Below are positions 30,419-49,142 of a stretch of DNA of 64,000 bases, one piece after another. The stretch is taken from positions 1-64,000 of IMG/VR virus record IMGVR_UViG_2834917809_000007; one strand, 5' to 3'. The notes beneath the pieces were generated by a model. It was given only the letters and a program-made list of their open reading frames with translations. It ran no database searches and was not told where the DNA came from. Made by a program: the position numbers and the translations under genes. The DNA is from a virus (taxonomy: Duplodnaviria; Caudoviricetes). The number at the start of each line of letters is the position of its first letter. Positions within the stretch are counted from its first letter, which is position 1.

Positions 30419-31735
30419 ATGGCCGCTAATCTTACCGAGACCGCTATACGTGGTTTGAAGACAAAGGACACTTCGTACTACGTATGGAGCAACAGTGCTC
30501 AACGTGGTACGGGCAGACTTGGCGTTAAGGTTCAGCCTTCTGGCAGCAAGGTGTTTTACTTCCGCTATTACGTTGATAAAGGAAAGAAAGAGAAATTCAT
30601 CCAGTTAGGCATCTGGCCTGAGATGAAGCTGGTGACAGCCAACGAGCTGGCGAAAAAGTATGGAGCCTGGCTTGTTGAAGGAAAAAATCCTCAGCAAGAG
30701 CTTGAGCAACAACGGCTGGCCGAACAACACCTCATGCAGCTCCATCGGTCTCAGGGATCGTTTGAAGAACTGGTGCATGGCTACGTTAACAAGATGAAGC
30801 TCGACAGCAAGCGAACCTGGGCTGATGTACTGAAGCGTCTTGAAAAAGAGTGTTACTCGATAATCCCTCGCGAAACTAAAGCGAAGGATGTGACGCCACT
30901 GCAGATCAAGACCATCCTCTCAGGTATTATCCAACGTGATGCGGTGGTCCATGCGAACCGAATTCGTTCATACCTGATGGCGGCATTTAACTACGGTCTG
31001 AAAGCCGATAACGATCCGATGAATACCAGCGTGGGTATTACGTTCGGTCTTGAGGTTAACCCAGTATCGGCCATACCGAAGCAGTCTTCGGCGGAAAAAG
31101 TGGGTGATACATGGTTAACGCTGGAACAGCTTCGTTTTGTCATGGAGCATTTCGCAGAGGCAACCAACGTTGGTCCGCTGATGCAACATTTAATCCGTTT
31201 CTGCGTGTATGCTGGTGGGCAGCGTCCGTTCGAAATGATTGCCAGCCGGTGGAGTGCGATTGACTGGCAGCAAAAAACACTGCTGGTTATTGCTGATGTA
31301 TCGAAAAACAAGCGTGAGCATCTGGTCCCACTTACGGAATCGGCGCTAGCAGAGTTGACCTTTGTAAAAGAGTTAATGAAGGAAAGTAGTAGTCCCTATA
31401 TCTTCCCACTCTCGACAGACGGAGAGCGGCCAGTACGTACTGATAGCCTGGCGCGGTCCATCATGTATTTCCGCGCGTTCAATCCGGAGTTTAAGGGTTT
31501 CACCGCTCGCGATTTGCGGCGCACCTGTAAGACTTTGATGGGGGAAGCAGGAATCAGCAAAGAGGTCCGTGACCGTATCCAGAATCATGCTTTGAATGAT
31601 GTCAGCTCGAAACACTATGATCGCTATGATTATCTGACTGAAAAGCGTAGAGCGCTTGAGATCTGGGAAGACATGATTAACAACTATCAGCGGCAGCAAG
31701 AAAACAACGTTGTGAACCTGTTTGGGCGGAAGTAG
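30419..31735 (+). CDS. int: Tyrosine integrase with N-terminal arm-binding domain (P4/island type)
   Basis: GRLGVKVQPSGSKVF.FRY; GQRPFE; RDLRRT..T.M...IQNH...HYDRYDY. Confidence 0.95.
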   Translation: MAANLTETAIRGLKTKDTSYYVWSNSAQRGTGRLGVKVQPSGSKVFYFRYYVDKGKKEKFIQLGIWPEMKLVTANELAKKYGAWLVEGKNPQQELEQQRLAEQHLMQLHRSQGSFEELVHGYVNKMKLDSKRTWADVLKRLEKECYSIIPRETKAKDVTPLQIKTILSGIIQRDAVVHANRIRSYLMAAFNYGLKADNDPMNTSVGITFGLEVNPVSAIPKQSSAEKVGDTWLTLEQLRFVMEHFAEATNVGPLMQHLIRFCVYAGGQRPFEMIASRWSAIDWQQKTLLVIADVSKNKREHLVPLTESALAELTFVKELMKESSSPYIFPLSTDGERPVRTDSLARSIMYFRAFNPEFKGFTARDLRRTCKTLMGEAGISKEVRDRIQNHALNDVSSKHYDRYDYLTEKRRALEIWEDMINNYQRQQENNVVNLFGRK

Positions 31736-31901: not shown

Positions 31902-32543
31902 CTATTTTTCTGGTAGCACGAACCGAACCTCAATGCGCCGCTGACGTGCATCTTCTGGCGCAACACCGGGAATAGGCTGTGAGTCACCGTATCCGGCAAC
32001 AATTACCCGACGTGCAAAAGCCGGAGCAAGATCGCCAACGATAAATTTACGCGCCTCTCTTGCACGAGCTGCCGATAAGGTAAAATTATCGTCATAGACA
32101 GTGCAGAAAACTTCAAAGTTCGTCACTGGACGGGTAACAGGAAGATTATCCGTATACCCTTCGATATAAACTTGTCCGCTTGTAAATTCGCTCAAAAATC
32201 TGACAACCTGTGTTTCAATCGTCGCTAATGCCTGACTTGCCTGAGATGCAATACATGCACTGCCACGGTTGAAAACCCCATCGCGCAACGTAATTTTTTG
32301 CGAGTTGACATCCAGCGCCACTAAGCCTTCATTCGCTGTCCCATCAAGGGTGTTTTTAATACTTCCCAACATCTCACCCACCCTGGCCCGCTGGGTATTG
32401 ATTCCCTGCTCCATTTCCTGCTTATGCTTAATATCCGACCATGTTTTCTGTAGTACCGACATCACCAGCAGCAACATTACTACAGCCATCACTCCTGACA
32501 TCAAGTCGGAGATCGAGACCCACTCATTAGGTTTATCTTTCAT
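31902..32543 (-). CDS. ZorB-like protein (TM helix + OmpA/MotB peptidoglycan-binding domain)
   Basis: WVSISDLMSGVMAVVMLLLV with membrane Asp; IEGYTD, N.TLSAARA, GYGDSQP, RRIEVRF. Confidence 0.85.
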   Translation of the reverse strand: MKDKPNEWVSISDLMSGVMAVVMLLLVMSVLQKTWSDIKHKQEMEQGINTQRARVGEMLGSIKNTLDGTANEGLVALDVNSQKITLRDGVFNRGSACIASQASQALATIETQVVRFLSEFTSGQVYIEGYTDNLPVTRPVTNFEVFCTVYDDNFTLSAARAREARKFIVGDLAPAFARRVIVAGYGDSQPIPGVAPEDARQRRIEVRFVLPEK

Positions 32544-32554
32544 AAGTGAGAGCC

Positions 32555-34507
32555 TCAGGCTGCATCATTAACAATGTTCATTGCCGATAGCGTTTGATCG
32601 ATATGTTTCAATGTCACAGTAAGTGGTGTCAGGCTTTGTTCAATTTGCTGAACGACCAGGTTCCGTTCCGGTGATGACAGCGTTGTACGAATCCCCTCCA
32701 GCTCTTTCAGAGAACGGTTCAATCTGTCATCGAGCGAAGAAAGTGCGGTTGATGCATCTGCATTACTCAGCATTTCATTACGCAATGATTCAATACTGTG
32801 CACCAGTTTACCAACGCCCGCAGTGATAATGTCCATTTTTGGTTGAAGAGGGCTCTCCTTCTGCATGAGCTGAAGTTGATTCACTAGCGCTTCAATAGCA
32901 TCTGCATTTCTTTCGCCTGATGTCGTCATTTCTGCATAACGGTTATTCAGACTAGCAACCTGTCGATTGCTGCTGGACACAGCGGTTAGACCGTTAACGA
33001 TTTGCTCGCGCAGGTCATCCACCAGTCTCGTCATAGCGATAACTTTTTCGTTCAAGGTTTCACTGGTGATCATAAATTCACGCTGTGCATCACGCTGAGT
33101 TTTCATCGATTGATCGATAGAAACTCGTACTTCACTCATTGTCGTGCCAACATTTTTAGACAGGTCGGTAACCGCGCTGGAAATGCCGTCCGTAGCGTTT
33201 GCCATACTTGCGGAAATCGATTCCATATTCTGGCTAAAACTTTCGCCCATCTGGGAGATGGTGGAACCAAGATCGGTTTTAACTGTGCCTAGCATGTCGG
33301 TAATGCCCGTACGGAAATCACCAATAACCTGTTGCAAATCACCTGCGGAATCACCCATTTCTTGTGCCGCCGATGACATTTTTTCGGCTGAATGTTGAAT
33401 GGCGGACAGGTTGCTACTGTTGGTATCAATAAAGTGTTGTAACGATTCTCGGGTGGTCGTTAACTCTGCTACCTGTTGTTGCCCTTGCACTGACTGATCT
33501 TCGGCTGCCTTAGCAATATCGTTTTGAATTTCATGTAAGAGATCTTGCAGTTTTACCAACTGCTTATTTTGGATAATACGCTGTTGTTCAGCGTCATCAC
33601 CCTGATCAGCAATCTTCATATAGAATGCGGCTATCTCTACATGCTGCGAATGGTTAGCCTGCCGGGAGTTTTCGCTTTCCTCACGAATATTGCTGCTTAG
33701 GTGTTGCAATCCCTCCATCTGTTGCTGTTGAGTGCTGCGGGATATATCAGCCAATTGCACCAGATGTGCTTCATGTAACTTGCTCTGCTGAGCAGCGGTT
33801 TTACCCTGATCAATCAAAGTTTGTAAAAACGACTCCATACCTGAAGAGAACTTGCTAAGTAACTGCCGTGTGGCTTCGCTTTCCACCTGCATTCTATCGT
33901 TCAAACCCTGTAATGCTGTCAGATACTGCAATTGGGTCTCTTCATGTTCAGCACGCTTTTGCTCTCGTGACTGGTCGAACACTTGTTTCATCTGCTGTGC
34001 GCACCAGCGCAAGCGCTTTTCGTCATATCCTAACCCAGCAGAACAGGCTTTAAGGATCAGATACGCCATGATCCCCCATGTGGACGTTTTAAATTTCGTC
34101 CCCAGCCCTTCCATCATCCCCATCAGATTCGACATGGCGTTATCCATGCCTGCTGAGTTAGCATCAATCAAAATATCCGATGCTTTATTAAGCGCAATTC
34201 CCAGACCGAGAAAGGTGCCTAGCAACCCTAAAATTAACAAAATGCCCGGCATAATGTCGGCCATTTTTTCTGCTGGACTGGCAACTGCTGCGCTGATTTC
34301 GTTGACTGAACCATGTTCAACATCGAGATGGTCTGCCCCATTATTCAGTGCATCACCTTGCCATTTTTTGTCCCAAAAGCGCTGATTTGCCTGCCAGAGC
34401 AATAAACCAATCGTCAGTAGAACCAAAAAAAGCATTGTGCCGCCAAACAGCATCTGTATGACGTCGAATTCCGGCAGTATAAAGGCAAAAAACTCGTGAA
34501 ACGTCAT
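32555..34507 (-). CDS. ZorA-like protein (MotA-like 3-TM channel + about 480-aa coiled-coil tail)
   Basis: PGILLILGLLGTFLGL and KFKTSTWGI motifs; heptad-rich tail; adjacent to ZorB-like gene. Confidence 0.82.
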   Translation of the reverse strand: MTFHEFFAFILPEFDVIQMLFGGTMLFLVLLTIGLLLWQANQRFWDKKWQGDALNNGADHLDVEHGSVNEISAAVASPAEKMADIMPGILLILGLLGTFLGLGIALNKASDILIDANSAGMDNAMSNLMGMMEGLGTKFKTSTWGIMAYLILKACSAGLGYDEKRLRWCAQQMKQVFDQSREQKRAEHEETQLQYLTALQGLNDRMQVESEATRQLLSKFSSGMESFLQTLIDQGKTAAQQSKLHEAHLVQLADISRSTQQQQMEGLQHLSSNIREESENSRQANHSQHVEIAAFYMKIADQGDDAEQQRIIQNKQLVKLQDLLHEIQNDIAKAAEDQSVQGQQQVAELTTTRESLQHFIDTNSSNLSAIQHSAEKMSSAAQEMGDSAGDLQQVIGDFRTGITDMLGTVKTDLGSTISQMGESFSQNMESISASMANATDGISSAVTDLSKNVGTTMSEVRVSIDQSMKTQRDAQREFMITSETLNEKVIAMTRLVDDLREQIVNGLTAVSSSNRQVASLNNRYAEMTTSGERNADAIEALVNQLQLMQKESPLQPKMDIITAGVGKLVHSIESLRNEMLSNADASTALSSLDDRLNRSLKELEGIRTTLSSPERNLVVQQIEQSLTPLTVTLKHIDQTLSAMNIVNDAA

Positions 34508-35775
34508 GCTGCCACCTCGACAAGCTGGCTTGCACGCGCGCGACTGGCTTTTTCAAAGATATTGGCAAAATCGATAATTAAACTTTGTTGCTCGGAATTA
34601 AGTTCTTCCCAATGCTTACCAAACTGAGCACACTCAATAATAATCATTCCAACCGCATTGCTGTCTTCCATCAAATATTCCTGACCTGCAAACGCCTCTG
34701 GTTCCTTTTCCAGCATTTGCAGAAACCCTTCAGCGGCAAAAACATAGTTACGCATTTCATTGGTGCGTTTGCGTTTTGCTTCCATCTCAGCCTGCTGCAC
34801 TGGTAAACGAGCTTCTAACTCATTGAGCATTGGTACTTCATCTTCCTGAAGATCACCAAGGCGCTGGCCAATCTGTAGACGTCGCAGGAGTACTTGCTCT
34901 TTGGACAGACCGTCATTCAGCGATTTCCATTCATTTTCCATATCCTGCAGGTTATACCCCCAGGCCATTATCATTTCTTCGAACACGAAGGGGATGAGTT
35001 TCTTACCAAAACGCGCCATCACAACGCGATCCAGGCGTTGCGTTGCGTCATCGCTCAACTGAGGGTTGGGCTTTAGCAATTCGTTCCCGGTTTCAATAAG
35101 AAACAGGTCGTCATCGGTGATCGTATCAATGTCCTGCGCACGCGTAAGATGTTGCTCAGTATCTTTTAATAACTTCTGCGACGCGCGTAACCGCAGATAA
35201 TGTTCGAAATCATTGATCTGAATATTATCCAGAACGTCCTTAATACGCGTTGAGAGTTGGGCATATAAGGTAATCAGACTCGCCAGGTCAACAGCACTCG
35301 CTGCTTCTCCGCGCATCTGATTACGTGCTTCGCGTAGTACTTGCTCATGCTCTTTGGCTTCATCCATTTCTTCTGGGGTAAGAAACAACTCTTTAAGTTG
35401 TTTGGCTTTATTAATTGCCCACTCAATGGCCTTACCAATACGTTTCGCCAGGTCACTCTTATCCCATTCGACCAGCAGCCCCAACGCTTTATCCAGCGCT
35501 TTCAAAGCACCACCCACCCACGGGAATTGTGGCAACATCTTTTCAGCTAATTTTGCTGCGTTTTGCACAATAGGGCGAATCACATTACTGATAAATGGCT
35601 TCACCTTTTCCCAGACGCTCTTTACGCTTCCAACAAAGGTCTCCGCTTTCTCTGCCATCCAGGAAACAGTTTTAGCTGCTGTTTCTTTAACACCGTCCCA
35701 TACCCGGCTGACTGTGCTTGTCACTGCACTTGCTACGCTGCTGCAAAAACTGCCGACACTTGACCAGAAACCCAT
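34504..35775 (-). CDS. Uncharacterised all-helical protein with N-terminal amphipathic segment
   Basis: MGFWSSVGSFCSSVAS...VWDGVKE..VSWMAE..VWEKVKPFI; stop overlaps ZorA-like start (ATGA). Confidence 0.85.
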   Translation of the reverse strand: MGFWSSVGSFCSSVASAVTSTVSRVWDGVKETAAKTVSWMAEKAETFVGSVKSVWEKVKPFISNVIRPIVQNAAKLAEKMLPQFPWVGGALKALDKALGLLVEWDKSDLAKRIGKAIEWAINKAKQLKELFLTPEEMDEAKEHEQVLREARNQMRGEAASAVDLASLITLYAQLSTRIKDVLDNIQINDFEHYLRLRASQKLLKDTEQHLTRAQDIDTITDDDLFLIETGNELLKPNPQLSDDATQRLDRVVMARFGKKLIPFVFEEMIMAWGYNLQDMENEWKSLNDGLSKEQVLLRRLQIGQRLGDLQEDEVPMLNELEARLPVQQAEMEAKRKRTNEMRNYVFAAEGFLQMLEKEPEAFAGQEYLMEDSNAVGMIIIECAQFGKHWEELNSEQQSLIIDFANIFEKASRARASQLVEVAA

Positions 35776-35793
35776 AATCTTCTCCTGTTGTTT

Positions 35794-36756
35794 TTATTGG
35801 ATACCTAATAATTTTTTTGCTGTGTTGACTTCACTGGCTGTACGTCCCGAATGATTGGCTACTGCTTGATGGGAGGCTAATACCTGTTCTATCGCACTCC
35901 GTAAGTGAGCGACGTTAAGTTGTGCAGCCTCTCCGGTGCGTTCCGCTTCTAGCAGCACTTTAGGCAGTGCCAGACGCATACAGGTACGGATCTCTCGTCC
36001 TGCCAGCCCTTCGGATAGTTCGCTTGCGGCGGTGAGAAGACTTTCTCTTTCTTCTGCGAGCGGTATTTCAGGGACCAGAAATTTGTTCCAGAGTTGGTAG
36101 CGTGCAGTCAGGTCAGGAAGCGTAAATTCAACGTGATAGCCAATGCGGCTGCGGAACGCCTCATCATAGTTACGTGCGAAATTAGTCGCGAAAACCACAA
36201 TGCCGTCAAAACGCTCCAACTCGATCAGTAACGTAGAGCGCATCGCATTAACTTCATTATCAACGCCTTGTGTGACAGAGGAGAGTCGTTTCCCCAGTAA
36301 CGTGTCAGCTTCATCGAAAAAGAGCAGTGCTCCGGTATCCTTAGCCTGCGCGAAAGCAGCCTGGATATTTTTTGCCGTTTCTCCCATAAACTTGCTTTCT
36401 AGTTCTGCAATACCAAGAGCAATAAAGGGCATCCGTAACTGTCCAGCCAGTGCCTCGGCGCAAAGCGTTTTCCCGGTGCCGGGGGGGCCATAAAAATTCA
36501 ATATCGCTGTCGATCCCATAGGGTCAACAACTGAAAAATTCCATTCCTGATAGATAGTTTTATGAAAACGCAGACGAGCCATACATTCATCAAGAGATGA
36601 TCGGGTGCTCTTGGACAAAATGACATCGTTATCGAGAGTAAATCTTGGATCTTTCAGTATATTTTTTTTTCCATCCTCGTCGCCATCTGACTGAGATAAC
36701 GACGGTCTTATCGGTGCCGAACCATTACTGTGTGTTGACATAAAATCGTCATCCAT
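35794..36756 (-). CDS. Single-domain classic-clade AAA+ ATPase
   Basis: GPPGTGKT, pore loop SKFMGET, LLFFDEAD, FATN, DEAFRSRI. Confidence 0.93.
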   Translation of the reverse strand: MDDDFMSTHSNGSAPIRPSLSQSDGDEDGKKNILKDPRFTLDNDVILSKSTRSSLDECMARLRFHKTIYQEWNFSVVDPMGSTAILNFYGPPGTGKTLCAEALAGQLRMPFIALGIAELESKFMGETAKNIQAAFAQAKDTGALLFFDEADTLLGKRLSSVTQGVDNEVNAMRSTLLIELERFDGIVVFATNFARNYDEAFRSRIGYHVEFTLPDLTARYQLWNKFLVPEIPLAEERESLLTAASELSEGLAGREIRTCMRLALPKVLLEAERTGEAAQLNVAHLRSAIEQVLASHQAVANHSGRTASEVNTAKKLLGIQ

Positions 36757-37269: not shown

Positions 37270-37719
37270 CTATGATTTATTGGGCTTAAACATGGTTGCA
37301 GTAAGGCGTGACAGTGAGCGTTTATCCACTTTGATCTGCAGTAATTCGTAATCATTTTGCATTTTCAACCAGTGCTCGGGCGTTCCGCCTAATACATAGC
37401 TGAGCCGGACGGCGGTTTCTGCTGTGATCCGCGAGCTGCCGTACACCAGATAATGACAGGCTGAAAGGCTCATGTTCATCGCTCTGGCGAAAGTGGTCAG
37501 TGTGATTTCATTCAGGGCAAGAATTCCTCTGATTCTTTCTGCCGGGACAGGGCTTTGCAGATTTTCATAGCCTTGCATCCAGCGAGAGCAGGAGCGTAGT
37601 GCTCTGCGCTTAGCCTGGCGGGCCCGTTCGTAGGCATAATCAGTTGGCATGAAGAGGGTTCCATTTACAAGCGTGTTCTGGTGCCCAGCCTGGTCATCAG
37701 AAATGAGGTTTTGCGCCAT
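37270..37719 (-). CDS. HigA-like XRE HTH protein (orphan)
   Basis: ITLTTFARAM...ITAETAVRLS..LG.TPEHWLKMQNDYEL; start may be 37650. Confidence 0.75.
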   Translation of the reverse strand: MAQNLISDDQAGHQNTLVNGTLFMPTDYAYERARQAKRRALRSCSRWMQGYENLQSPVPAERIRGILALNEITLTTFARAMNMSLSACHYLVYGSSRITAETAVRLSYVLGGTPEHWLKMQNDYELLQIKVDKRSLSRLTATMFKPNKS

Positions 37720-37902
37720 TCTAACCTATAATCGAGGCGTACAGGGTGTGGGTAAAGCGCTCATTCAGCCCACCGTTCATTTCTTTGTCCTGTATCGTTT
37801 GCGATAGACCTCTTAGCGGGTATTATTTTGCGCACTGCATTCCAAAATTGAATTTTTGCCTCTGCACATTTGCAGTATGGCTGCGATCTCCCCGAGGGTT
37901 TC

Positions 37903-40263
37903 ATGACTAACACTAACTTTTCTCAAACGGCTGCGTTTATCTGGTCGGTGGCTGATTTGCTGCGCGGTGATTTCAGACAGTCTCAGTACGGGCGCGTGAT
38001 CCTGCCCTTTACGCTGCTGCGTCGTCTTGAGTGCGTGTTGGCGGAGACCAAAGATGCGGTGGTGGCGAAATACGATGAATTAAAAACCAGCCCGCTGCCG
38101 GAAGATGCGAAAGAGAAGTTTCTGCTTCGCGCCAGCACATTTTCCTTCTTCAATACCTCGAAGATGGATCTGGGCAAGATGGGGCAGAACGACATCAAAG
38201 CCAACCTGGAAAGCTACGTACAGGCGTTTTCCCCGGACGCGCGTGAAATCTTCGAGCACTTCAAATTCAGCGAGTTTGTCGGCCTGCTGGAAGATGCCAA
38301 CCTGCTGTTCAAAGTGGTGAAGAAATTCGCCACCACCGATTTAAGCCCAAAAGCGATTTCCAACCATGATATGGGCCTGGTGTTTGAAGAGCTTATCCGT
38401 CGTTTTGCGGAAAGCTCCAACGATACTGCCGGTGAACACTTCACCCCACGTGATATCGTGCGCCTGACCACCTCGCTGGTGTTTATGGAAGATGATGAAG
38501 CCCTGACGCAGGACGGTATCATCCGCACCATTTATGATCCAACTGCCGGGACCGGCGGCTTCCTCTCTTCGGGCATGGAATATGTGCACGAGCTGAACCC
38601 TAACGCGGTCATGCGTGCCTTTGGCCAGGAGCTGAACCCGGAATCCTACGCTATCTGTAAAGCCGATATGCTGATCAAAGGTCAGGACGTCAGCCGCATT
38701 AAGCTGGGTAACACCCTCTCTAACGACCAGCTGCCACAGGACCAGTTCGACTACATGCTCTCTAACCCGCCGTTTGGCGTGGACTGGAAGAAGATTGAGG
38801 GCGAGATTAACGACGAACATACGCAGAAAGGCTTTAACGGTCGCTTTGGCCCGGGCCTGCCGCGTGTATCCGACGGCTCGCTGCTGTTCCTGATGCACTT
38901 GATCAGCAAAATGCGCGACAACCACAATGTGGATGGCAGCGTGAGCAACGGCGGGCGTATCGGGATTATCCTTAACGGTTCCCCACTGTTTACCGGTGGC
39001 GCTGGTAGCGGTGAGAGCGAAATCCGTCGCTACATTCTGGAAGCCGATTTGCTGGAAGGCATTGTCGCGCTGCCAACGGACATGTTCTACAACACCGGCA
39101 TTGCCACCTACGTCTGGATCCTCTCCAACAAGAAAGCGCCTGAGCGTAAAGGCAAAGTACAGCTGATTGATGGCACCAATCTGTGTGGAAAAATGCGTAA
39201 ATCGCTGGGTTCGAAGCGTAACCTGATGGGCGAAGACGATATCAAACTGATCACGCAGACCTTCGGTGACTTTGAGGTTGTGGATGCCACAACCCTCGAA
39301 GAACTGGGTCTGGAAAAAGCCGCCGAGCAAAAATCCAGCCGTGGCCGTCAGCCTGCAACCGCCAAAGCCGAAGCGCCGAAAACCTTCGCCAGTAAAATCT
39401 TTAACAGCACTGATTTTGGCTATCGCCGCCTGACCATTGAACGCCCACTGCGTTTATCTGCTCAAGTGACGGATGAGGCGATTGCGACTCTGCGCTTTGC
39501 GCCGAAGCCGTTTAATGTGCCGATGGAACGTCTGTATGAAGAGTTCGCAGCCCAATGGCAGGCGGGTAACTACGGTGATTTCTCCGAGCTGGATGCCGAT
39601 GCGCGCGCCATCATTAAAGCTGAATTTGCCGAGCTGAAAGAGAAGCAGATTAAAGATCTGCTCGACAGCAAACTGTGGCTGGCGCAGCGCGGATTGATGG
39701 AAAAGGCACAGCAGATTCAGACGGCTCTGGGTACGCAGACTGGTGGTAAAACGCGGGTAAGCAATGACTTCAATCAGTTCCAGCTGACCCTGAAAGGGGC
39801 CATCAAAACCGCTGGTGTGAAGCTGGATGCGAAAGAGAACAAGCAGTTTATCGATGCCATCACCACCAAAAACCCGGATGCCGAACCGGTGGTGAAGAAA
39901 GTGCTGAAAGAAGCCGCTCAGCCGCTGTACGGTGCGTTTGAATATAAAGGCAAGGTTGTTGAGTTTGAGCAGGACGGTGAGCTGCGTGATAACGAAAACG
40001 TACCGCTGAACCCAGCAGTCTCCACCAGCGACCTGATTGAAAACTATTTCGAGTCTGAAGTACTACCGCATGTGAATGACGCGTGGATCAACGCCGATAA
40101 GCGCGATGCGAAAGATGGCGAAGTAGGGATTGTCGGTTATGAGATCCCGTTTAACCGCCATTTCTATGTCTATCAGCCGCCGCGCCCGCTGGAAGAAATT
40201 GATGCAGATCTGGATGCGGTCAGCGCCGAGATTATGAAGCTGCTGCAGGAGGTTCATTCCTGA
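37903..40263 (+). CDS. hsdM: Type I R-M methyltransferase subunit
   Basis: [37 protein letters not shown]. Confidence 0.97.
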
Positions 40264-41645
40264 TGGCTAAGTATAAGGCGTATCCGGAGTATAAGGATTC
40301 TGGAGTTGAGTGGTTGGGGGAACTTCCAGCTCATTGGACAACGCTAGCAATAAAACATGTTGCTCAATTAAATCCTTCTAAATCATGCATTAGCATAGAA
40401 AAAATGAAAGGGATGTGTAGCTTTATTCCGATGGAAAAGCTCAAATTCAATTCCTTATGTTTAGATGAAATAAAAGATGTTACCGATGTATATAATGGAT
40501 ATACATATTTTGAAAATGAAGACATCCTAATTGCAAAAGTCACACCATGCTTCGAAAATAAAAACATGGTCGTTGCGCGTGATTTGAACAATGGCGTAGG
40601 ATTTGGTTCTTCTGAAATTTATGTTTTACGTTGCAATGATATTATAAACAATGATTTTTTATTTTATCGTCTTCAGGAAGATAGCTTCATGTTCATAGCT
40701 GAAGGTGCTATGACCGGTGCCGGTGGATTGAAGAGGGTACCTTCAGAAGTTCTAAATAATTTTAAATTTGGGCTTCCAAGTAAAAAAGAGCAATCAATAA
40801 TAGTAGATTTCCTCAAGCACGAAACCGCAAAAATCGACAACCTGATCGAGAAACAACAGCAACTGATTGAACTGCTGAAAGAAAAACGTCAGTCAGTGAT
40901 TAGCCATGCCGTCACCAAAGGGCTAAACCCTGATGTGCCGATGAAAGATTCCGGTGTTGAGTGGTTAGGGGAAGTGCCGGATCATTGGGAACTCGTACCA
41001 CTTAAATACTTGTGCAATTTTAGTGGGGGTGGGACTCCGACAAAAGATAACTTATCTTATTGGCAAGGGGGGACTGTTCCATGGGTTTCTCCGAAAGATA
41101 TGAAGTCTTTTTGGATTTCAGAAACTCAAGATTATGTTACACCAAAAGCAGTAAGTGAATCTTCAACAAACTATATTGAAGAAGGTTCATTGCTCATGGT
41201 AGTTCGTTCTGGAATTCTTCAGCGAAATATTCCTGTGGCTATAAATATCGTAAAGGTTACGATGAATCAGGATATGAAAGCGTTAAGATTTAATGAAAGA
41301 ATGAAGGCCCATTATGCAGCGTATTTTATCAACGGGAATGTCAATTCTTTGTTGTTAGAATGGACAAAAGAAGGGGCTACTGTCGAAAGCATTGAGCATG
41401 AGTATCTTGCAAATGGATTGATCCCTGTTCCACCGATAGATGAGCAACATTCGATAATTAAGAGCATCTCAGGCCAAATGATACGCTTTGAGTTATTGGA
41501 AGAAAAAGCATTAACAGGTATCCTACTTCTCCAGGAACGCCGCACCGCCCTTATCTCAGCCGCCGTCACCGGAAAAATCGACGTCCGCGACTGGGTTGCC
41601 CCTGACGCGCAGGATGTTGAGGCATCACAGGAGGCTACCGCATGA
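40263..41645 (+). CDS. hsdS: Type I R-M specificity subunit
   Basis: Repeated KDSGVEWLGE.P.HW conserved segments flanking two AT-rich TRDs. Confidence 0.96.
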   Translation: MAKYKAYPEYKDSGVEWLGELPAHWTTLAIKHVAQLNPSKSCISIEKMKGMCSFIPMEKLKFNSLCLDEIKDVTDVYNGYTYFENEDILIAKVTPCFENKNMVVARDLNNGVGFGSSEIYVLRCNDIINNDFLFYRLQEDSFMFIAEGAMTGAGGLKRVPSEVLNNFKFGLPSKKEQSIIVDFLKHETAKIDNLIEKQQQLIELLKEKRQSVISHAVTKGLNPDVPMKDSGVEWLGEVPDHWELVPLKYLCNFSGGGTPTKDNLSYWQGGTVPWVSPKDMKSFWISETQDYVTPKAVSESSTNYIEEGSLLMVVRSGILQRNIPVAINIVKVTMNQDMKALRFNERMKAHYAAYFINGNVNSLLLEWTKEGATVESIEHEYLANGLIPVPPIDEQHSIIKSISGQMIRFELLEEKALTGILLLQERRTALISAAVTGKIDVRDWVAPDAQDVEASQEATA

Positions 41646-44600
41646 GCATGGACAGCACCAAAGAGCTGATCTTCCAGAATGAGATGATTGCTCAGATGAT
41701 CGACCGAGGCTGGATTCTCGGCAAAACTGACGGCTACGATCGCGAACGTGCGCTGTACTCGCAGGATACGCTGACCTTTGTGCAGACCACGCAGCCGCAG
41801 GAGTGGGAGAAGTTTGCCAAAGTTTATCCTTCCAATACCGAGCGTCATTTCCTCGATGCGCTGGTGGCGCAGCTGAAAAAAGCGGATATCAATGCCACCG
41901 ATGTTTTGTCTCGCACTTACGGCACGCTCGGCGTACTGCGTCATGGCATAAAAAGCCATAATGCGCGTTTTTCGCTGTGTCAGTTTAAGCCGGAACATAG
42001 CCTCAACCCGGAAACCCTGACGCGCTACAAACAGAATATCTGCCGCATCGTGCCGGAGCTGGTTTACAGCCCGCATGCGTCGAACGCCGCATTTGAAGAA
42101 ACGGGCGTGAAGGCAAAGAAATGGCGTATCGACCTGGTGTTGTTCGTCAATGGCCTGCCGATAGCAACCCTCGAACTGAAGTCTGAATTTAAGCAGACGG
42201 TGCAAAACGCCATTACGCAATATAAGAAAACGCGTTTGCCGAAGGACCCTGGTACCAATAAACCCGAGCCGCTGCTGACCTTTAAACGCGGCACGCTGGT
42301 GCACTTTGCCGTCAGTCAGTACGAAGTGTTTATGGCGACCAAACTCGAGGGAGATAAAACCTTCTTCCTGCCGTTTAACAAAGGCACTCATGACGGTGGC
42401 GCAGGGAACGATATCCCGGAAGATGCCAACGACTACGCTACCAGCTACCTGTGGAATGAGGTGCTGCTGCCGGACAACCTGCTGAAAATTCTCGCCAGCT
42501 TCGTGCATCTGCAAATCGTCGAAAAAGAAAATGCCATTGGCCTGAAGTACAAAAGCGAGAGCCTGATTTTTCCGCGCTATCACCAGTGGGACGTGGTGAA
42601 CAAACTGATCACTGCCGCTACGATGGAAGGGACTGGCAATAAATACCTGATTCAGCATAGCGCCGGATCGGGCAAATCGAACTCTATCGCCTGGACGGCC
42701 CATCAGCTTTCCCGCCTGTATGATGAAAATGGCGAGAAGCAGTTCCATTCGGTAATTGTGGTGACGGACCGCACCGTGCTTGACGATCAGCTGCAGGACA
42801 CCATCTATCAGTTTGAACATCAGGATGGTGTGGTCGGGCGTATTAATAACAAAGAAGGAGAAGGTTCTAAATCGGACAAGCTGGCCTTCGCGCTGGAAAA
42901 TTCGCAGCCGATTATCATCGTCACCATCCAGACATTCCCGTTTGTCCTGAAGGCGATTGAAAACAGCGTCAGCCTCAAGCAGCGCAAATACGCGGTTATT
43001 GCCGATGAAGCGCACTCCTCCCAGAGCGGCTCTACGGCGCGTCAGCTGAAAGAAGTGCTGATGACCGAAGAGGTGGATGACGATGTGGAGATGTCTTCAG
43101 AAGATATTCTGGATGCCACCGTCGCCGCGCGTAAAGGCAGCAACAACCTGAACTATTACGCCTTTACCGCTACGCCGAAAGCCAAAACGCTGGAGCTGTT
43201 TGGCCGTCGTCCTAATCCGCAGGAACCCGCATCGAAAACGAACAAACCGGAAGCGTTCCACGTTTACTCCATGCGTCAGGCCATCGAAGAGGGCTTTATT
43301 CTTGATGTGCTGAAGAACTACACCAATTACAAGGTGGCGTATAAGCTGCTGCAAAAGCTGGACGATCCTGATCGGGAAGTGGACAGCAAGAAAGCGAAGA
43401 TCAAACTGAACCAGTGGGTCTCGCTGCACGATCATAATGTGTCGCAGAAAGTGAAGGTGATTGTTGAGCACTTCCGTAAGCATGTGATGCATTTACTGGC
43501 CGGCCAGGCGAAAGCGATGGTGGTGACCAGTTCGCGTAAAGCGGCGGTGCGCTACAAGCTGGCGTTCGATAAATACATCGCCGAGCACAAGTACGACAAG
43601 ATAAGTGCAATGGTGGCGTTCTCCGGGGAAGTGGAATTCAATGAAGATGACCACAACAGCCTTGCGCTGCTTCACCAGAAGTTCACCGAAATCAATATGA
43701 ACCCAGGCCTCAAAGGCCGGGATATGCGCAAAGCGTTTGATACCGACGACTACCAGGTGATGCTGGTGGCTAACAAATTCCAGACCGGCTTTGACCAGCC
43801 TAAGCTCTGTGCCATGTATGTGGATAAAAAGCTCGGCGGCGTGGAGTGCGTACAGACGTTGTCGCGCCTGAACCGGACATATCCTGGGAAGGCCCAGTCC
43901 GGCACCTTTGTGCTCGATTTCTACAACGAACCCGATGAGATTTTGGGTGCTTTCCAGCCGTACTACCAAACAGCAGAACTGACGGATGTTAGCGATCCGC
44001 AACAGGTCTTTGAACTGTTTGAAAAGCTGCGCACCAGCGGCATTTTCCTGTGGAACGAAGTGGAGCAGTTCTGCGAGGCGTTCTTCAGCAAAAACAAATC
44101 CAATGCGGCGATTAGCAATATCTGCAAACCTGCAGTGGAGCGCTGGAAGCATCGCTACACCTCAGCGATTGATGCCTATGTGCTGGCCAAAGAGATGTTT
44201 GAACGCACCAAAAAGACCGGCGATGTTGTGCTGATCACTAATGCGGAAAACACCTTCAAAGAGTGCGAAAAAGAAAAAAGTAAGCTGGATATCTTCAAGA
44301 AGGATCTCGGCAGCTTTGTCCGCTTTTACGAGTTCATGTCGCAAATCGTCGATTATGATGACAAGAACCTGGAAAAGCTGAGCCTGTTTGCTCGTCACTT
44401 GCGTCCGCTGCTGCATGAACAGCGTATCGAAGAAGACGAGATTGACTTAAGCAACGTCGAGATGAGCCATTACCGCTTGTCGAAGCTCCACGAGCAGCAT
44501 CTGAAGCTACAAGAAGATGCTGAAGACTACAAAATCAAACCGGGGAATGATGTTGGTACGGCAAAGCCGAAGGACAAGAAAGAAGAGTTTCTGTCGAATA

Positions 44601-44890
44601 TCCTGGCGCGTCTTAACGAGCTGTTCGTTACCGATAATCTGACCGATAAAGACATGATCAACTATGCCTTCGCGGTGCGTGACAAGCTGTCAGAAAACCA
44701 GGCGGTGATGACCCAGATTGCCAACAATACGCGTGAACAGGCGATGCTGGGCGATTTTCCGAAAGCCATTGATGATGCCGTGATGGACAGCAACGACGCC
44801 CAGCAGGAGATGATGGTGCAATACCTCTCTAACCCTGAACTGGCGAAGGGCTTTGCTCGTGTAGTGTTTGATATGTTGAAAGGGGCTTAA
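41642..44890 (+). CDS. hsdR: Type I R-M restriction subunit
   Basis: IDLVLFVNG...LELK nuclease; QHSAGSGKS, IADEAHSSQ, AFTATP, QTGFDQP. Confidence 0.97.
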   Translation: MSMDSTKELIFQNEMIAQMIDRGWILGKTDGYDRERALYSQDTLTFVQTTQPQEWEKFAKVYPSNTERHFLDALVAQLKKADINATDVLSRTYGTLGVLRHGIKSHNARFSLCQFKPEHSLNPETLTRYKQNICRIVPELVYSPHASNAAFEETGVKAKKWRIDLVLFVNGLPIATLELKSEFKQTVQNAITQYKKTRLPKDPGTNKPEPLLTFKRGTLVHFAVSQYEVFMATKLEGDKTFFLPFNKGTHDGGAGNDIPEDANDYATSYLWNEVLLPDNLLKILASFVHLQIVEKENAIGLKYKSESLIFPRYHQWDVVNKLITAATMEGTGNKYLIQHSAGSGKSNSIAWTAHQLSRLYDENGEKQFHSVIVVTDRTVLDDQLQDTIYQFEHQDGVVGRINNKEGEGSKSDKLAFALENSQPIIIVTIQTFPFVLKAIENSVSLKQRKYAVIADEAHSSQSGSTARQLKEVLMTEEVDDDVEMSSEDILDATVAARKGSNNLNYYAFTATPKAKTLELFGRRPNPQEPASKTNKPEAFHVYSMRQAIEEGFILDVLKNYTNYKVAYKLLQKLDDPDREVDSKKAKIKLNQWVSLHDHNVSQKVKVIVEHFRKHVMHLLAGQAKAMVVTSSRKAAVRYKLAFDKYIAEHKYDKISAMVAFSGEVEFNEDDHNSLALLHQKFTEINMNPGLKGRDMRKAFDTDDYQVMLVANKFQTGFDQPKLCAMYVDKKLGGVECVQTLSRLNRTYPGKAQSGTFVLDFYNEPDEILGAFQPYYQTAELTDVSDPQQVFELFEKLRTSGIFLWNEVEQFCEAFFSKNKSNAAISNICKPAVERWKHRYTSAIDAYVLAKEMFERTKKTGDVVLITNAENTFKECEKEKSKLDIFKKDLGSFVRFYEFMSQIVDYDDKNLEKLSLFARHLRPLLHEQRIEEDEIDLSNVEMSHYRLSKLHEQHLKLQEDAEDYKIKPGNDVGTAKPKDKKEEFLSNILARLNELFVTDNLTDKDMINYAFAVRDKLSENQAVMTQIANNTREQAMLGDFPKAIDDAVMDSNDAQQEMMVQYLSNPELAKGFARVVFDMLKGA

Positions 44891-46113: not shown

Positions 46114-46947
46114 TCAGTTAGTAACGTCGGAATCTTCATTCTCAGAATGACCCTTTCTCCAGCCCGCTGCAAATTCAGACGGTGTCTGATAATTCAGCGT
46201 GGAGTGCGGGCGGCATTCGTTATAATCCTGCCGCCAGTCATTAATAATTTTCCTAGCATGAACGATATCGCTGAACCAGTGCTCATTCAAACATTCATCG
46301 CGAAATCGTCCGTTAAAGCTCTCAATAAATCCGTTCTGCGTTGGCTTGCCCGGCTGGATTAAGCGCAACTCAACACCATGCTCAAAGGCCCATTGATCCA
46401 GTGCACGGCAAGTGAACTCCGGCCCCTGGTCAGTTCTTATCGTCGCCGGATAGCCTCGAAACAGTGCAATGCTGTCCAGAATACGCGTGACCTGAACGCC
46501 TGAAATCCCAAAGGCAACAGTGACCGTCAGGCATTCCTTTGTGAAATCATCGACGCAGGTAAGACACTTGATCCTGCGACCGGTGGAAAGTGCGTCCATG
46601 ACGAAATCCATCGACCAGGTCAGATTGGGCGCCGCCGGACGGAGCAGCGGCAGACGTTCTGTTGCCAGCCCTTTACGACGTCTTCTGCGTTTTACGCCCA
46701 GGCCACTGAGGTGATAAAGCCGGTACACGCGCTTATGATTAACATGAAGCCCTTCACGGCGCAGCAACTGCCAAATACGACGGTAGCCAAAACGCCTGCG
46801 CTCCAGTGCCAGCTCAGTGATGCGCCCTGATAAATGCGCATCAGCAGCCGGACGGTGAGCCTCATAGCGGCAGGTCGACAGGGATAAACCTGTAAGCCTG
46901 CAGGCACGACGTTGCGACAGACCGGTCGCATCACACATCAACATCAC
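46114..46947 (-). CDS. IS3 OrfB (DDE transposase domain)
   Basis: [27 protein letters not shown]. Confidence 0.95.
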
Positions 46948-48056: not shown

Positions 48057-49142
48057 TCAAGCGCATAGGATTTCGTATATTGTCGAAAAGTATTGCATAG
48101 TGCTGCGCTGTGCTGCCATTTTGCTGCCACCAATTAGGTTTAAGGGGTTAAGTTGAACCGCTTCTGTTAGATGGTCGGGGGCAAAGTGAGCATACCGCAT
48201 TGTAACTTTAATATCCGTATGTCCAAGGATGCGTTGTAAGACCAGAATATTGCCGCCGCCCATCATGAAATGGCTGGCAAAAGTATGTCGTAGAACGTGC
48301 GACAGCTGGCCGTCTGGTAACTCTATTCCCGCGCGCTTTATCGCGCTCCTGAATGCAGAATAACATCCGGTAAAGAGTGGCTTTGAGGTTCGGCTTTTGG
48401 GTAGCAATTCGTAAAGCTCATCACTGATTGGAACTGCACGGTTTTTCTTACCTTTCGTTTTGATAAAGGTTATTTTGCCGGGGCTTATCTGCTTGCCGGT
48501 TAAGCTTTCAGCCTCTCCCCATCTTGCGCCGGTCGCAAGGCAGATTTTGACAATCGTGGTTAAATCACCTGCTTTGCTTTTCTCGCATTCCTCAAGCAAG
48601 CGCGTCGCTTCCTCAACCGTAAGCCAAGCTAGCTCAACTTCTGCAATCTTAAACTCTCTGACGTTTTCGAGAGGGTTTGGTGCTGTCCAATCATCAAGTC
48701 TTTTCAGCTCATTGAACATAGCCCGAAAGTAAGCCAGTTCAAGGTTTACCGTGCGAGGAGTTACGGACTTAACGCGATCCGAGCGGGTTATTTTCCCGCT
48801 TAAACGCTGCTCTCTATACGTTGAGAATAATTTTGCGTTGAATTCAGTTGCGAGGGGATCGCCCATAGCGAGACAGGCAAACTCCATTGCGCCTTTACGC
48901 TTCTCGCCATCAGCGAGTGTTACACCATGTGCGTTATACCAAGCTGTAACCAAATCACGAACGCGGCGTTTATCTGTTTTCTCACCCAGCCATGGCTTAT
49001 CTTGGGCTTGTTCCTTTACATGACGCTCGAATGCCAGGGCCTCTCCCTTAGTGGCAAACTGTCGCCGGATGCGTTTACCATCGCGCCCGTTTGGGAATAC
49101 CTGGGCTTGCCATTTACCGTTAGGTAATTTTGATACGGCCAT
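48057..49142 (-). CDS. int: Tyrosine integrase (P2/186 family)
   Basis: HVLRHTFASHF...LGHTDIKVTMRYAH; related to 1-1038. Confidence 0.97.
   Translation of the reverse strand: MAVSKLPNGKWQAQVFPNGRDGKRIRRQFATKGEALAFERHVKEQAQDKPWLGEKTDKRRVRDLVTAWYNAHGVTLADGEKRKGAMEFACLAMGDPLATEFNAKLFSTYREQRLSGKITRSDRVKSVTPRTVNLELAYFRAMFNELKRLDDWTAPNPLENVREFKIAEVELAWLTVEEATRLLEECEKSKAGDLTTIVKICLATGARWGEAESLTGKQISPGKITFIKTKGKKNRAVPISDELYELLPKSRTSKPLFTGCYSAFRSAIKRAGIELPDGQLSHVLRHTFASHFMMGGGNILVLQRILGHTDIKVTMRYAHFAPDHLTEAVQLNPLNLIGGSKMAAQRSTMQYFSTIYEILCA

Follow-up and report, generated by a model that had tools for sequence, protein, structure and literature searches.

A candidate relative of Zorya that combines a ZorAB-like motor with an AAA+ ATPase and an unnamed protein bearing a basic amphipathic arm

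Background

Zorya is among the commonest anti-phage systems. In Zorya I, a proton-driven motor with a 5:2 ratio of ZorA to ZorB carries a pentameric tail of ~70 nm (PMC11946911). Three types have been described, namely I (ZorABCD), II (ZorABE) and III (ZorABFG), and none of them has an ATPase of the kind considered here (PMC11946911, PMC11890865). All three end in partners that bind or cut DNA, and the transfer of the signal from the rotating tail is an open question. Here we report a four-gene operon found in a stretch of 64,000 nucleotides (the window), positions 1 to 64,000 of the IMG/VR virus record IMGVR_UViG_2834917809_000007 (Duplodnaviria; Caudoviricetes). The operon encodes relatives of ZorA and ZorB, together with an AAA+ ATPase and a protein of 423 residues, here called X, which is the subject of this study. 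An earlier reading of the DNA letters (the original prediction) had proposed that X is a membrane-active effector with a long amphipathic N-terminus. Judged by its sequence relationships, the operon is an undescribed four-gene relative of Zorya, a motor with new partners, and X belongs to no described family.

A ZorAB-like motor with new partners

The four genes are closely packed on the minus strand (31902-36756), in the order ATPase, X, ZorA-like and ZorB-like. The first encodes an ATPase of the classic clade with 320 residues (35794..36756; Pfam PF00004, 3e-26). The X gene (34504..35775), defined by its open reading frame and translation, is followed by the ZorA-like gene (32555..34507), recognised by PADLOC and NCBIfam matches, whose product of 650 residues has three membrane helices and an acidic helical tail of 485 residues. 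The last gene (31902..32543), recognised by PADLOC and Pfam matches, encodes the ZorB-like protein of 213 residues, with a membrane helix bearing an Asp and an OmpA-type wall-binding domain. Direct reading places a Shine-Dalgarno sequence, AGGAG, at 35782..35786 on the minus strand, inside the gap of 18 nucleotides behind the ATPase gene; it stands 6 nucleotides ahead of the ATG of X and makes a strong ribosome site. At the other end of the gene, the stop codon of X and the start codon of the ZorA-like gene overlap in an ATGA (34504..34507, minus strand, read directly). Because of this overlap the two genes are translationally coupled, as the original prediction had said, and the reading frame has exactly the coordinates given there. 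A tight junction between X and the ZorA-like gene is also seen in most related loci.

The operon shares several features with Zorya. Its ZorA-like protein has three membrane helices and extends a very long helical tail into the cytoplasm, its ZorB-like protein has a membrane Asp and an OmpA-type wall-binding domain, and the genes for cytoplasmic partners stand in the same operon, on defence islands. The ZorA-like protein matches the PADLOC model ZorA1 at 1.1e-11, other ZorA1-3 models as well, and the NCBIfam model ZorA_2 at 3e-8, under its cut-off. Since its scores fall under the NCBIfam cut-offs for ZorA, it is best regarded as a distant relative of that protein. The ZorB-like protein matches PADLOC ZorB1 (1.3e-17) and Pfam OmpA (9.7e-9), and is likewise under the NCBIfam cut-offs. 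Its Asp13 is the counterpart of Asp26 of ZorB, which belongs to the 5:2 motor (PMC11946911). Because Asp13 is retained in at least 90% of 55 copies and the motifs of the second and third transmembrane (TM) helices of the ZorA-like protein are conserved as well, the motor is likely to be active. The tail of the ZorA-like protein has a net charge of -23 and is acidic in all copies.

There are also differences from Zorya. The features of ZorA and ZorB are present, although their similarity, while specific, is weak, whereas the partners that define the types, ZorC with ZorD, ZorE, or ZorF with ZorG, are replaced by the AAA+ ATPase and X, and a nuclease is absent. Moreover, the partner genes precede the zorA-like gene, whereas in Zorya they come after it. 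In a literature search with incomplete journal coverage, neither a ZorAB-type motor accompanied by an AAA+ ATPase nor a fourth type of Zorya was found.

X returned chance rows only when compared with Pfam, NCBIfam, PADLOC (including its ZorC, ZorD, ZorE, ZorF and ZorG models) and a PDB sequence profile, and no catalytic motif or enzyme family was found for it in the same four resources. With PADLOC matches admitted at E up to 0.1, nothing appeared except a chance LmuB row. The relatives of X number 320 at the 90% clustering level and form 130 clusters at 50% identity, all unnamed; nearly all have 410-450 residues and they are without a Pfam domain. A profile search of a 5.8-billion sequence set returned only unnamed relatives of X. 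Longer fused forms (717-2045 residues) were searched for and none was found, which is weak evidence.

A scan of species genomes provided 66 loci, from Proteobacteria and Cloacimonadota. The carriers include Enterobacterales, Pseudomonas, Burkholderiales, Vibrio, Shewanella, Moraxellaceae, Haemophilus, Sphingomonas and Cloacimonadota. Wherever the contig was long enough, the ATPase, X, ZorA-like and ZorB-like genes were found in this order on one strand, and the order is kept even around remote relatives of X with ~25% identity. The AAA+ partner named by the original prediction is therefore confirmed, the ATPase gene being always beside X in related loci. At the same time the operon is rare and scattered: among 400 other species genomes of the order one carries it, as does one of 5426 complete E. 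coli genomes, in which X is annotated by PGAP as 'hypothetical protein'. Further carriers are one megaplasmid, one more IMG/VR contig and one unverified metagenomic 'phage' scaffold. The last is a 47.5-kb faecal-metagenome scaffold named 'Bacteriophage sp.' (MT835507.1; L084, 589-15770), which has the whole operon in the same order and an X that is 39% identical. The ZorA-like protein varies in length from 482 to 865 residues among the loci, with all the variation in the tail, and X is steady at 407-454 residues. In one locus (L024) the ZorA-like gene is seemingly broken, and in another (L053) it starts 1.6 kb behind X.

The ATPase is the best conserved of the four proteins. Its closest solved relatives are the D-domains of VCP/Cdc48 (1e-34), and its Walker A motif, K-F-M-G pore loop and Walker B motif are invariant in 58 copies; F123 belongs to the pore loop and E149 to the Walker B motif. 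The AAA core is preceded by ~40 disordered residues, and the protein has neither a substrate-binding N-domain of its own nor an MIT domain. Matches in PADLOC were limited to the IetA (1e-29) and TRIP13 (7e-15) models; the archaeal CdvC (Vps4) model was matched at 6e-20. In IetAS, too, a stand-alone classic AAA+ protein is paired with one partner, and IetA is the best match of our ATPase in the defence libraries. However, the ATPase reaches 98 bits on the NCBIfam model IteA, the cut-off of which is 510, and IetAS has no motor of the ZorAB type. As X has no peptidase or IetS match and the ATPase is far under the IteA cut-off, identity with IetAS was rejected. In CBASS, the immune operon with TRIP13/Cap6 and HORMA proteins likewise has an AAA+ remodeller next to a small partner that is not an enzyme, but X is all-helical and not a HORMA protein, and no cyclase or nucleotide signal is present here.

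The basic amphipathic arm of X

X is built of two parts with opposite charge. The arm (codons 1-125, 35401..35775, minus strand), delimited by hydrophobic moment, periodicity, charge and face composition, is basic and amphipathic; the body (codons 127-423, 34507..35397, minus strand), delimited by AlphaFold2 modelling, charge and conservation, is acidic and predicted to be all-helical. The split in charge holds for the family: of 81 representatives, nearly all have a net positive charge on the first 130 residues and every one has a net negative charge on the body.

The long amphipathic N-terminus with W, V and F at helical spacing, which was the starting point of the original prediction, is well supported. 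Residues 1-82 form one unbroken amphipathic stripe with a mean 18-residue hydrophobic moment of 0.445, compared with 0.203±0.040 in 2000 shuffles (z 6.1, reached by 0 of 2000), and exceed every other stretch of X in this respect. The apolar residues follow 11-residue ladders that start from W4, V7, C11 and V14 (positions 4, 7, 11 and 14 plus multiples of 11) and continue through seven repeats. In 58 homologues the arm has its strongest periodicity at 99.0-99.5 degrees, or 3.63 residues per turn, and the ratio of the summed power at 11/3 (98.2 degrees) to that at 7/2 (102.9 degrees) is 7.9; the hairpin and the other body helices of X peak at 104-105.5 degrees, typical of packed coiled helices. 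When the 58 homologues are read in one phase of 99.3 degrees, the face within ±60 degrees is 89% hydrophobic (V 30%, A 26%), and the opposite face consists of S (23%) and K (16%), plus A and G. The arm varies in length by insertions and deletions of 4, 7 and 11 residues, which leave the helical phase intact.

Along its length the arm has a start rich in S, A, V and G, a conserved block at residues 33-60 and a P85-W86 turn between the most hydrophobic segments. The family-mean hydropathy has its maxima at residues 1-19 and 86-104. Segments of TM grade (Kyte-Doolittle 19-residue mean of at least 1.6) occur in the arm of 20 of the 81 representatives versus the body of 1 of 81, although the body is more than twice as long as the arm; most of them lie at 65-105, around the conserved P85-W86.

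Apolipoproteins, alpha-synuclein and perilipins contain amphipathic lipid-binding helices with 11-residue repeats. The arm resembles the exchangeable apolipoproteins, alpha-synuclein and perilipins in its long straight stripe, its 11-residue ladder and the V and A of its apolar face; it is also rich in Lys, Ser, Gly and Thr, and is predicted to be disordered when off a surface. There is no sequence relationship, however, and the Pfam Apolipoprotein model does not match X. Moreover, unlike apolipoproteins and alpha-synuclein, the arm is the terminal segment of a folded protein from bacteria that is linked to a motor and an ATPase. The arm has the 11-residue periodicity of the 11/3 amphipathic helices, a class based on function and not on homology, and its lipid binding is putative. 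In the AlphaFold2 model, residues 1-37 are below pLDDT 50 and modelled as disordered, and a long helix then extends to residue 80. The predicted disorder of residues 1-37, together with a body that folds in silico without the arm (see below), fits an arm that would fold only on a surface.

The acidic helical body and the conserved ends

AlphaFold2, given an alignment of 65 sequences, models the full X as all-helical (pLDDT 82, pTM 0.69), with the arm (1-125) followed by a five-helix bundle (134-256) and an antiparallel helical hairpin of ~100 residues (codons 260-356, 34708..34998, minus strand; helices 260-306 and 311-356, pLDDT 90-98). Folded alone, the body (127-423) reaches pLDDT 89.3 and pTM 0.80; because it folds better alone than within the full X, it is probably an autonomous domain. 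The model agrees with the helical body free of catalytic motifs that had been proposed from the letters, as does the lack of a match in the family libraries and the PDB profile.

Conservation is concentrated in a few blocks, four of them strongly conserved motifs of the body. In pairs less than 50% identical overall, regional identity is 50% both for residues 1-12 and for residues 33-60, 84% for residues 189-203 (consensus DFEHYLRLRATQKLL), 64% for residues 257-273 (which include PFVFEEM), 75% for residues 344-357 (AAEGFLQxLEK) and 53% for residues 399-415 (DFANIF ... R414). The N-terminus carries a near-invariant motif, MGFWSSVGSFCS (codons 1-12, 35740..35775, minus strand), with the family pattern M-G-F/W/L-W/F/L-S. 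A start of this form is present in 64 of the 81 representatives and in nearly all of 63 locus copies, and a relative with only 26% overall identity shares all of the first 12 residues. The other end carries a conserved tail, VEVAA (codons 419-423, 34507..34521, minus strand), with the pattern hydrophobic-E-V/I-x-x-COOH. Of 58 copies, 45 have the motif [VILT]E[VI] within their last 10 residues, and in 35 it is followed by exactly two residues; the remote clade retains the motif, and the TIR fusion described below lacks it. Short conserved motifs at both free ends of X point to specific partners. The last ~80 residues of the body, the part with AAEGFLQ...DFANIF, were also found fused behind DUF6575 in a protein of 273 residues (P0224; L067:212-1033), and this part may be a separable module.

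No fold could be assigned to the X model by the searches run, and a new fold is not claimed. With Foldseek, neither the full X model nor the body alone had a PDB match below E 0.08. The best Z in VIA-align, from the wide search plus a second look, was 8.5-8.7, on the hairpin only and within noise for helical models; IpaB, YscO, HlyD, the dynein stalk, Smac, Vipp1 and PspA match the hairpin alike, in a generic way. The ESM Atlas, searched by shape and features, returned X's own unnamed family only and no named clusters. The original prediction had also loosely compared X with helical toxins, a comparison that the generic hairpin matches at noise level do not sustain: AhlC gave Foldseek E 0.1-0.3 and TM 0.15-0.25 (noise level), ClyA E 1.2 and YaxA Z 7.6 at an rmsd of 21.8, and XaxA was at noise level too.

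The same prediction loosely likened X to PspA and ESCRT-III. Like X, the PspA, Vipp1 and ESCRT-III proteins begin with an amphipathic segment, contain a long helical hairpin and have a classic AAA+ ATPase as neighbour. X could accordingly be pictured as a polymer of this kind that coats the membrane, with the ATPase as a Vps4-like disassembly factor, the two of them mending the lesions made by phage. The N-terminal amphipathic helix and long hairpin of X, the alignment of Vipp1 and PspA chains on the hairpin at Z 7.3-7.5 and the match of the ATPase to the CdvC (Vps4) model are consistent with such repair. However, in these proteins the hairpin directly follows alpha0, whereas in X a bundle of 130 residues separates the hairpin from the amphipathic helix. 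Neither PspA_IM30 nor Snf7 matched X in Pfam at E up to 0.1, and the 65-sequence profile of X compared with Citrobacter PspA in hhalign gave a probability of 0.14% (E 0.42). Vipp1 (7o3x; Z 7.5, rmsd 4.7, 107 residues) and PspA (4whe; Z 7.4, rmsd 4.1, 118 residues) align on the hairpin only, tied with unrelated hairpins: HlyD, the dynein stalk, Smac and others reach equal Z, under the noise level of helical models. The lack of an MIT domain in the ATPase also argues against a Vps4-like role. A membrane-mending polymer is therefore very improbable, and the likeness to PspA and ESCRT-III is not supported.

The arm as a candidate membrane-directed effector

Comparison of variants of the arm may provide the best clue to its role. 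First, in the remote clade that also has the ATPase and the ZorA-like and ZorB-like genes, the arm contains runs of GxxxGxxxG, the pattern of membrane-inserting glycine zippers. Second, in one relative a plain TM helix replaces the arm. Third, a protein of 558 residues (P0229, on a Logan contig from run ERR4592245) has a TIR domain before an X-type body. The body of P0229 aligns with the X family profile in hhalign with a probability of 98.5% and E 3.6e-15 over 244 columns of the C-terminal part, and a second TIR protein of 629 residues is encoded just upstream. A search for more fusions of TIR with the body in metagenome contigs gave TIR-domain matches only. Bacterial immune proteins commonly exchange TIR domains and membrane-spanning modules as their weapons. 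Because such modules stand in the place of the arm in relatives, these variants favour the possibility that the arm occupies the effector slot of X.

Our preferred reading, held tentatively and at somewhat less than even chance, is that X is the output subunit or effector of the operon, with the ATPase as its switch or reset, and that the output is membrane-based and not nuclease-based as in Zorya I-III. X would be parked at the inner membrane beside a wall-anchored proton motor of the ZorA5B2 type, its arm lying against the membrane and the part of ZorA closest to it, and its body resting on the ZorA tail. Attack of a phage on the envelope would switch the motor on. The ATPase, presumably of the unfoldase type, would then grip one conserved end of X and remodel the acidic body, and the arm, freed or concentrated, would disturb the membrane locally by leak or depolarisation, or would block the entry of DNA. 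The operon, the two-part build of X, the physical character of the arm, the charge split across the family and the arm variants are observed; that the arm binds the membrane and is toxic, what triggers the system and which way the ATPase acts are inferred, and the end of X engaged by the ATPase is a guess. The membrane-active effector of the original prediction thus stands in part: the family comparison (basic arm, TM-grade segments, zippers, TM and TIR variants) gives indirect support to a membrane-directed, effector-like arm, but none to the likeness to PspA or to toxins.

Several observations weigh against this reading. The TM-helix variant comes from a single 1.5-kb metagenome contig, and neither the ATPase nor ZorAB was seen on the contig of P0229, a single short one of 4.4 kb. 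X has no true TM helix, the family-mean hydropathy being at most 1.0. Within the arm, the polar residues E45, K52 and K59 are conserved; the arm is as a whole conserved to the same degree as the body and evolves no faster, which suggests contacts with protein. Co-divergence was examined by a partial Mantel test on 55 loci, in which false positives are common among related sequences and only the contrast between partners was used. The divergence of the arm follows residues 1-165 of ZorA (partial r 0.38, p 0.001) and the ZorA tail (r 0.21, p 0.005), and does not track the ATPase or ZorB. The helical period of the ZorA-like tail (median 100.5 degrees) is nearly that of the arm. Since the tail is also acidic, the basic arm could bundle with ZorA and lie along its tail instead of along lipid.

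These points lead to a different view of X, as a harmless adaptor whose arm docks on ZorA, at its tail and at the part close to the membrane, and whose body holds the AAA+ ring, the unfoldase being the real effector. The motor would position or activate the unfoldase, which would pull apart a phage or host protein at the site of entry. The divergence of the body follows the ZorA tail (0.35), the ATPase (0.20) and ZorB (0.22); its following of the tail and the ATPase, with the arm following ZorA, speaks for an adaptor. The ~3.6-residue period and the opposite charges of the arm and the ZorA tail, the end motifs of X, conserved far beyond the needs of lipid binding, and the lack of a TM helix in X are all consistent with docking; so is the state of the ATPase, best conserved of the four and with an intact pore loop, but without its own substrate-binding N-domain. 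Nevertheless, elaboration of the arm into hydrophobic or glycine-zipper forms and its exchange for a TM helix or a TIR domain are expected of an effector position and not of a docking peptide, and the partial Mantel tests are prone to the false positives mentioned above. The contrast between partners hints at a location of the arm close to the motor's membrane part, and of the body close to the tail and the ATPase. Such a layout suits a parked effector and a pure adaptor equally, and it would also fit the recruitment by the ZorA tail and the recycling by the ATPase that the original prediction had proposed. We regard a pure adaptor as rather unlikely, though worth serious attention.

The strongest of the co-divergence signals, between the arm and the membrane part of ZorA, may also be read in terms of a motor brake. 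X would then resemble an antitoxin that clamps or plugs ZorA5B2 and is stripped off by the ATPase on infection, and the damage would come from uncontrolled proton flow or rotation of the tail. The ATGA coupling of X to ZorA, which suggests matched amounts of the two, is consistent with this possibility, and so is the C-terminal tail of X, which often ends in -AA and in this recalls the tags read by the unfoldase ClpX. On the other hand, the exchange of the arm for TIR is hard to reconcile with a brake, the toxicity of the motor alone is hypothetical, and the known Zorya motors need no such device (PMC11946911). A brake is therefore distinctly improbable.

If the preferred reading of a membrane-directed effector is taken to its full extent, the operon would represent a fourth kind of Zorya, in which an ion-driven rotary envelope sensor acts through an unfoldase on an arm resembling a peptide antibiotic, restrained by the acidic body and released at the point of phage entry. 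We consider this full version somewhat unlikely. If true, the relay from motor to unfoldase to membrane would be without described precedent in bacterial immunity. Likewise, if the arm is the weapon, motors of the ZorAB type can drive membrane-based immunity too, and the catalogue of immune modules would gain a new family whose conserved body also occurs in fusion with TIR. With regard to the open question of how the Zorya tail passes on its signal, the four-gene operon is a simple, clonable test bed.

Genomic setting and expression

Taken as a whole, the operon is a mobile and conserved unit found in the company of defence genes. In the window, the island that contains it has a tyrosine integrase (30419..31735, plus strand; Arm-DNA-bind_3 and Phage_integrase), and the pairing of integrase and operon recurs in E. 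coli NZ_LR536430.1, the genome of strain VREC0761, in which the four genes occupy 1802308-1807162. Upstream of the operon and on its strand lies a gene for a HigA-type helix-turn-helix (HTH) protein, a possible regulator (37270..37719, minus strand; TIGR02607, 4.6e-16), and beyond it are the hsdM, hsdS and hsdR genes of a type I restriction-modification system (37870..44890, plus strand; Pfam N6_Mtase, Methylase_S and HSDR_N/ResIII).

In 8 of 10 related loci checked, a WYL/WCX regulator, often HTH plus WCX of the BrxR/CapW type, is encoded immediately upstream of the ATPase on the same strand (L010:3960-4982, L016:3826-4893, L017:3558-4475, L024:4081-4980, L026:4107-5087, L029:4045-5031, L032:3951-4952 and L050:3979-4983). 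WYL (13) and WCX (8) are the commonest domains among 131 flanking open reading frames. Further neighbours of related loci are type I restriction-modification, JukAB, NERD-UvrD, Fic and dynamin-like genes.

Motors of the MotAB/ExbBD type power many unrelated tasks. The operon might thus be imagined as an accessory envelope function, for example in stress, transport or surface motility, that rides on islands. Against this stand its scattered distribution among species, on integrative islands among restriction-modification, JukAB and similar genes, its closest profile matches, which are ZorA and ZorB, and the existence of a TIR fusion of the X body. The regulator often found ahead of the operon is a further objection, as BrxR-type WYL regulators sit before diverse defence systems (PMC9122601). 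A role outside defence is accordingly hardly credible.

With respect to expression, a scan of the operon for promoters and terminators gave sites no more numerous than in shuffles. One metatranscriptome contig of 6.9 kb covers the entire operon of a relative with ~92% identity, with DNA carry-over possible, and short contigs from two possibly-RNA runs cover parts of X, for which DNA carry-over is possible as well.

Some other features of the neighbourhood are worth recording. The copy in the window has the HigA-type HTH gene where relatives have the WYL regulator; the HTH protein (37270-37719, minus strand) has an N-terminal extension of 60 residues, no HigB-like partner gene adjoins it, and a non-coding stretch of 513 bp separates its gene from the ATPase gene. 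The type I methylase subunit (37870-40263, plus strand) is unusually long, with 797 residues; its HsdM_N and N6_Mtase matches stop near residue 472, and ~320 C-terminal residues are without a match. Two large genes for dynamin-like GTPases adjoin a remote copy of the operon (L070:6691-10652, minus strand), and proteins with Dynamin_N/MMR_HSR1 were seen in three or four other neighbourhoods of the operon. These dynamin-like genes are probably a separate system of the Eleos type.

Finally, the IMG/VR record (G000, 85359 bases) is classed as one complete provirus. The window contains the end of a P2-like prophage (to ~29.5 kb) and then the separate integrase-bearing defence island, as well as an IS3-family transposase (46114-46947) and a second integrase (48057-49142). 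Because the prophage end, the island, the transposase and the second integrase are distinct, the 'provirus' record is better described as a string of elements.

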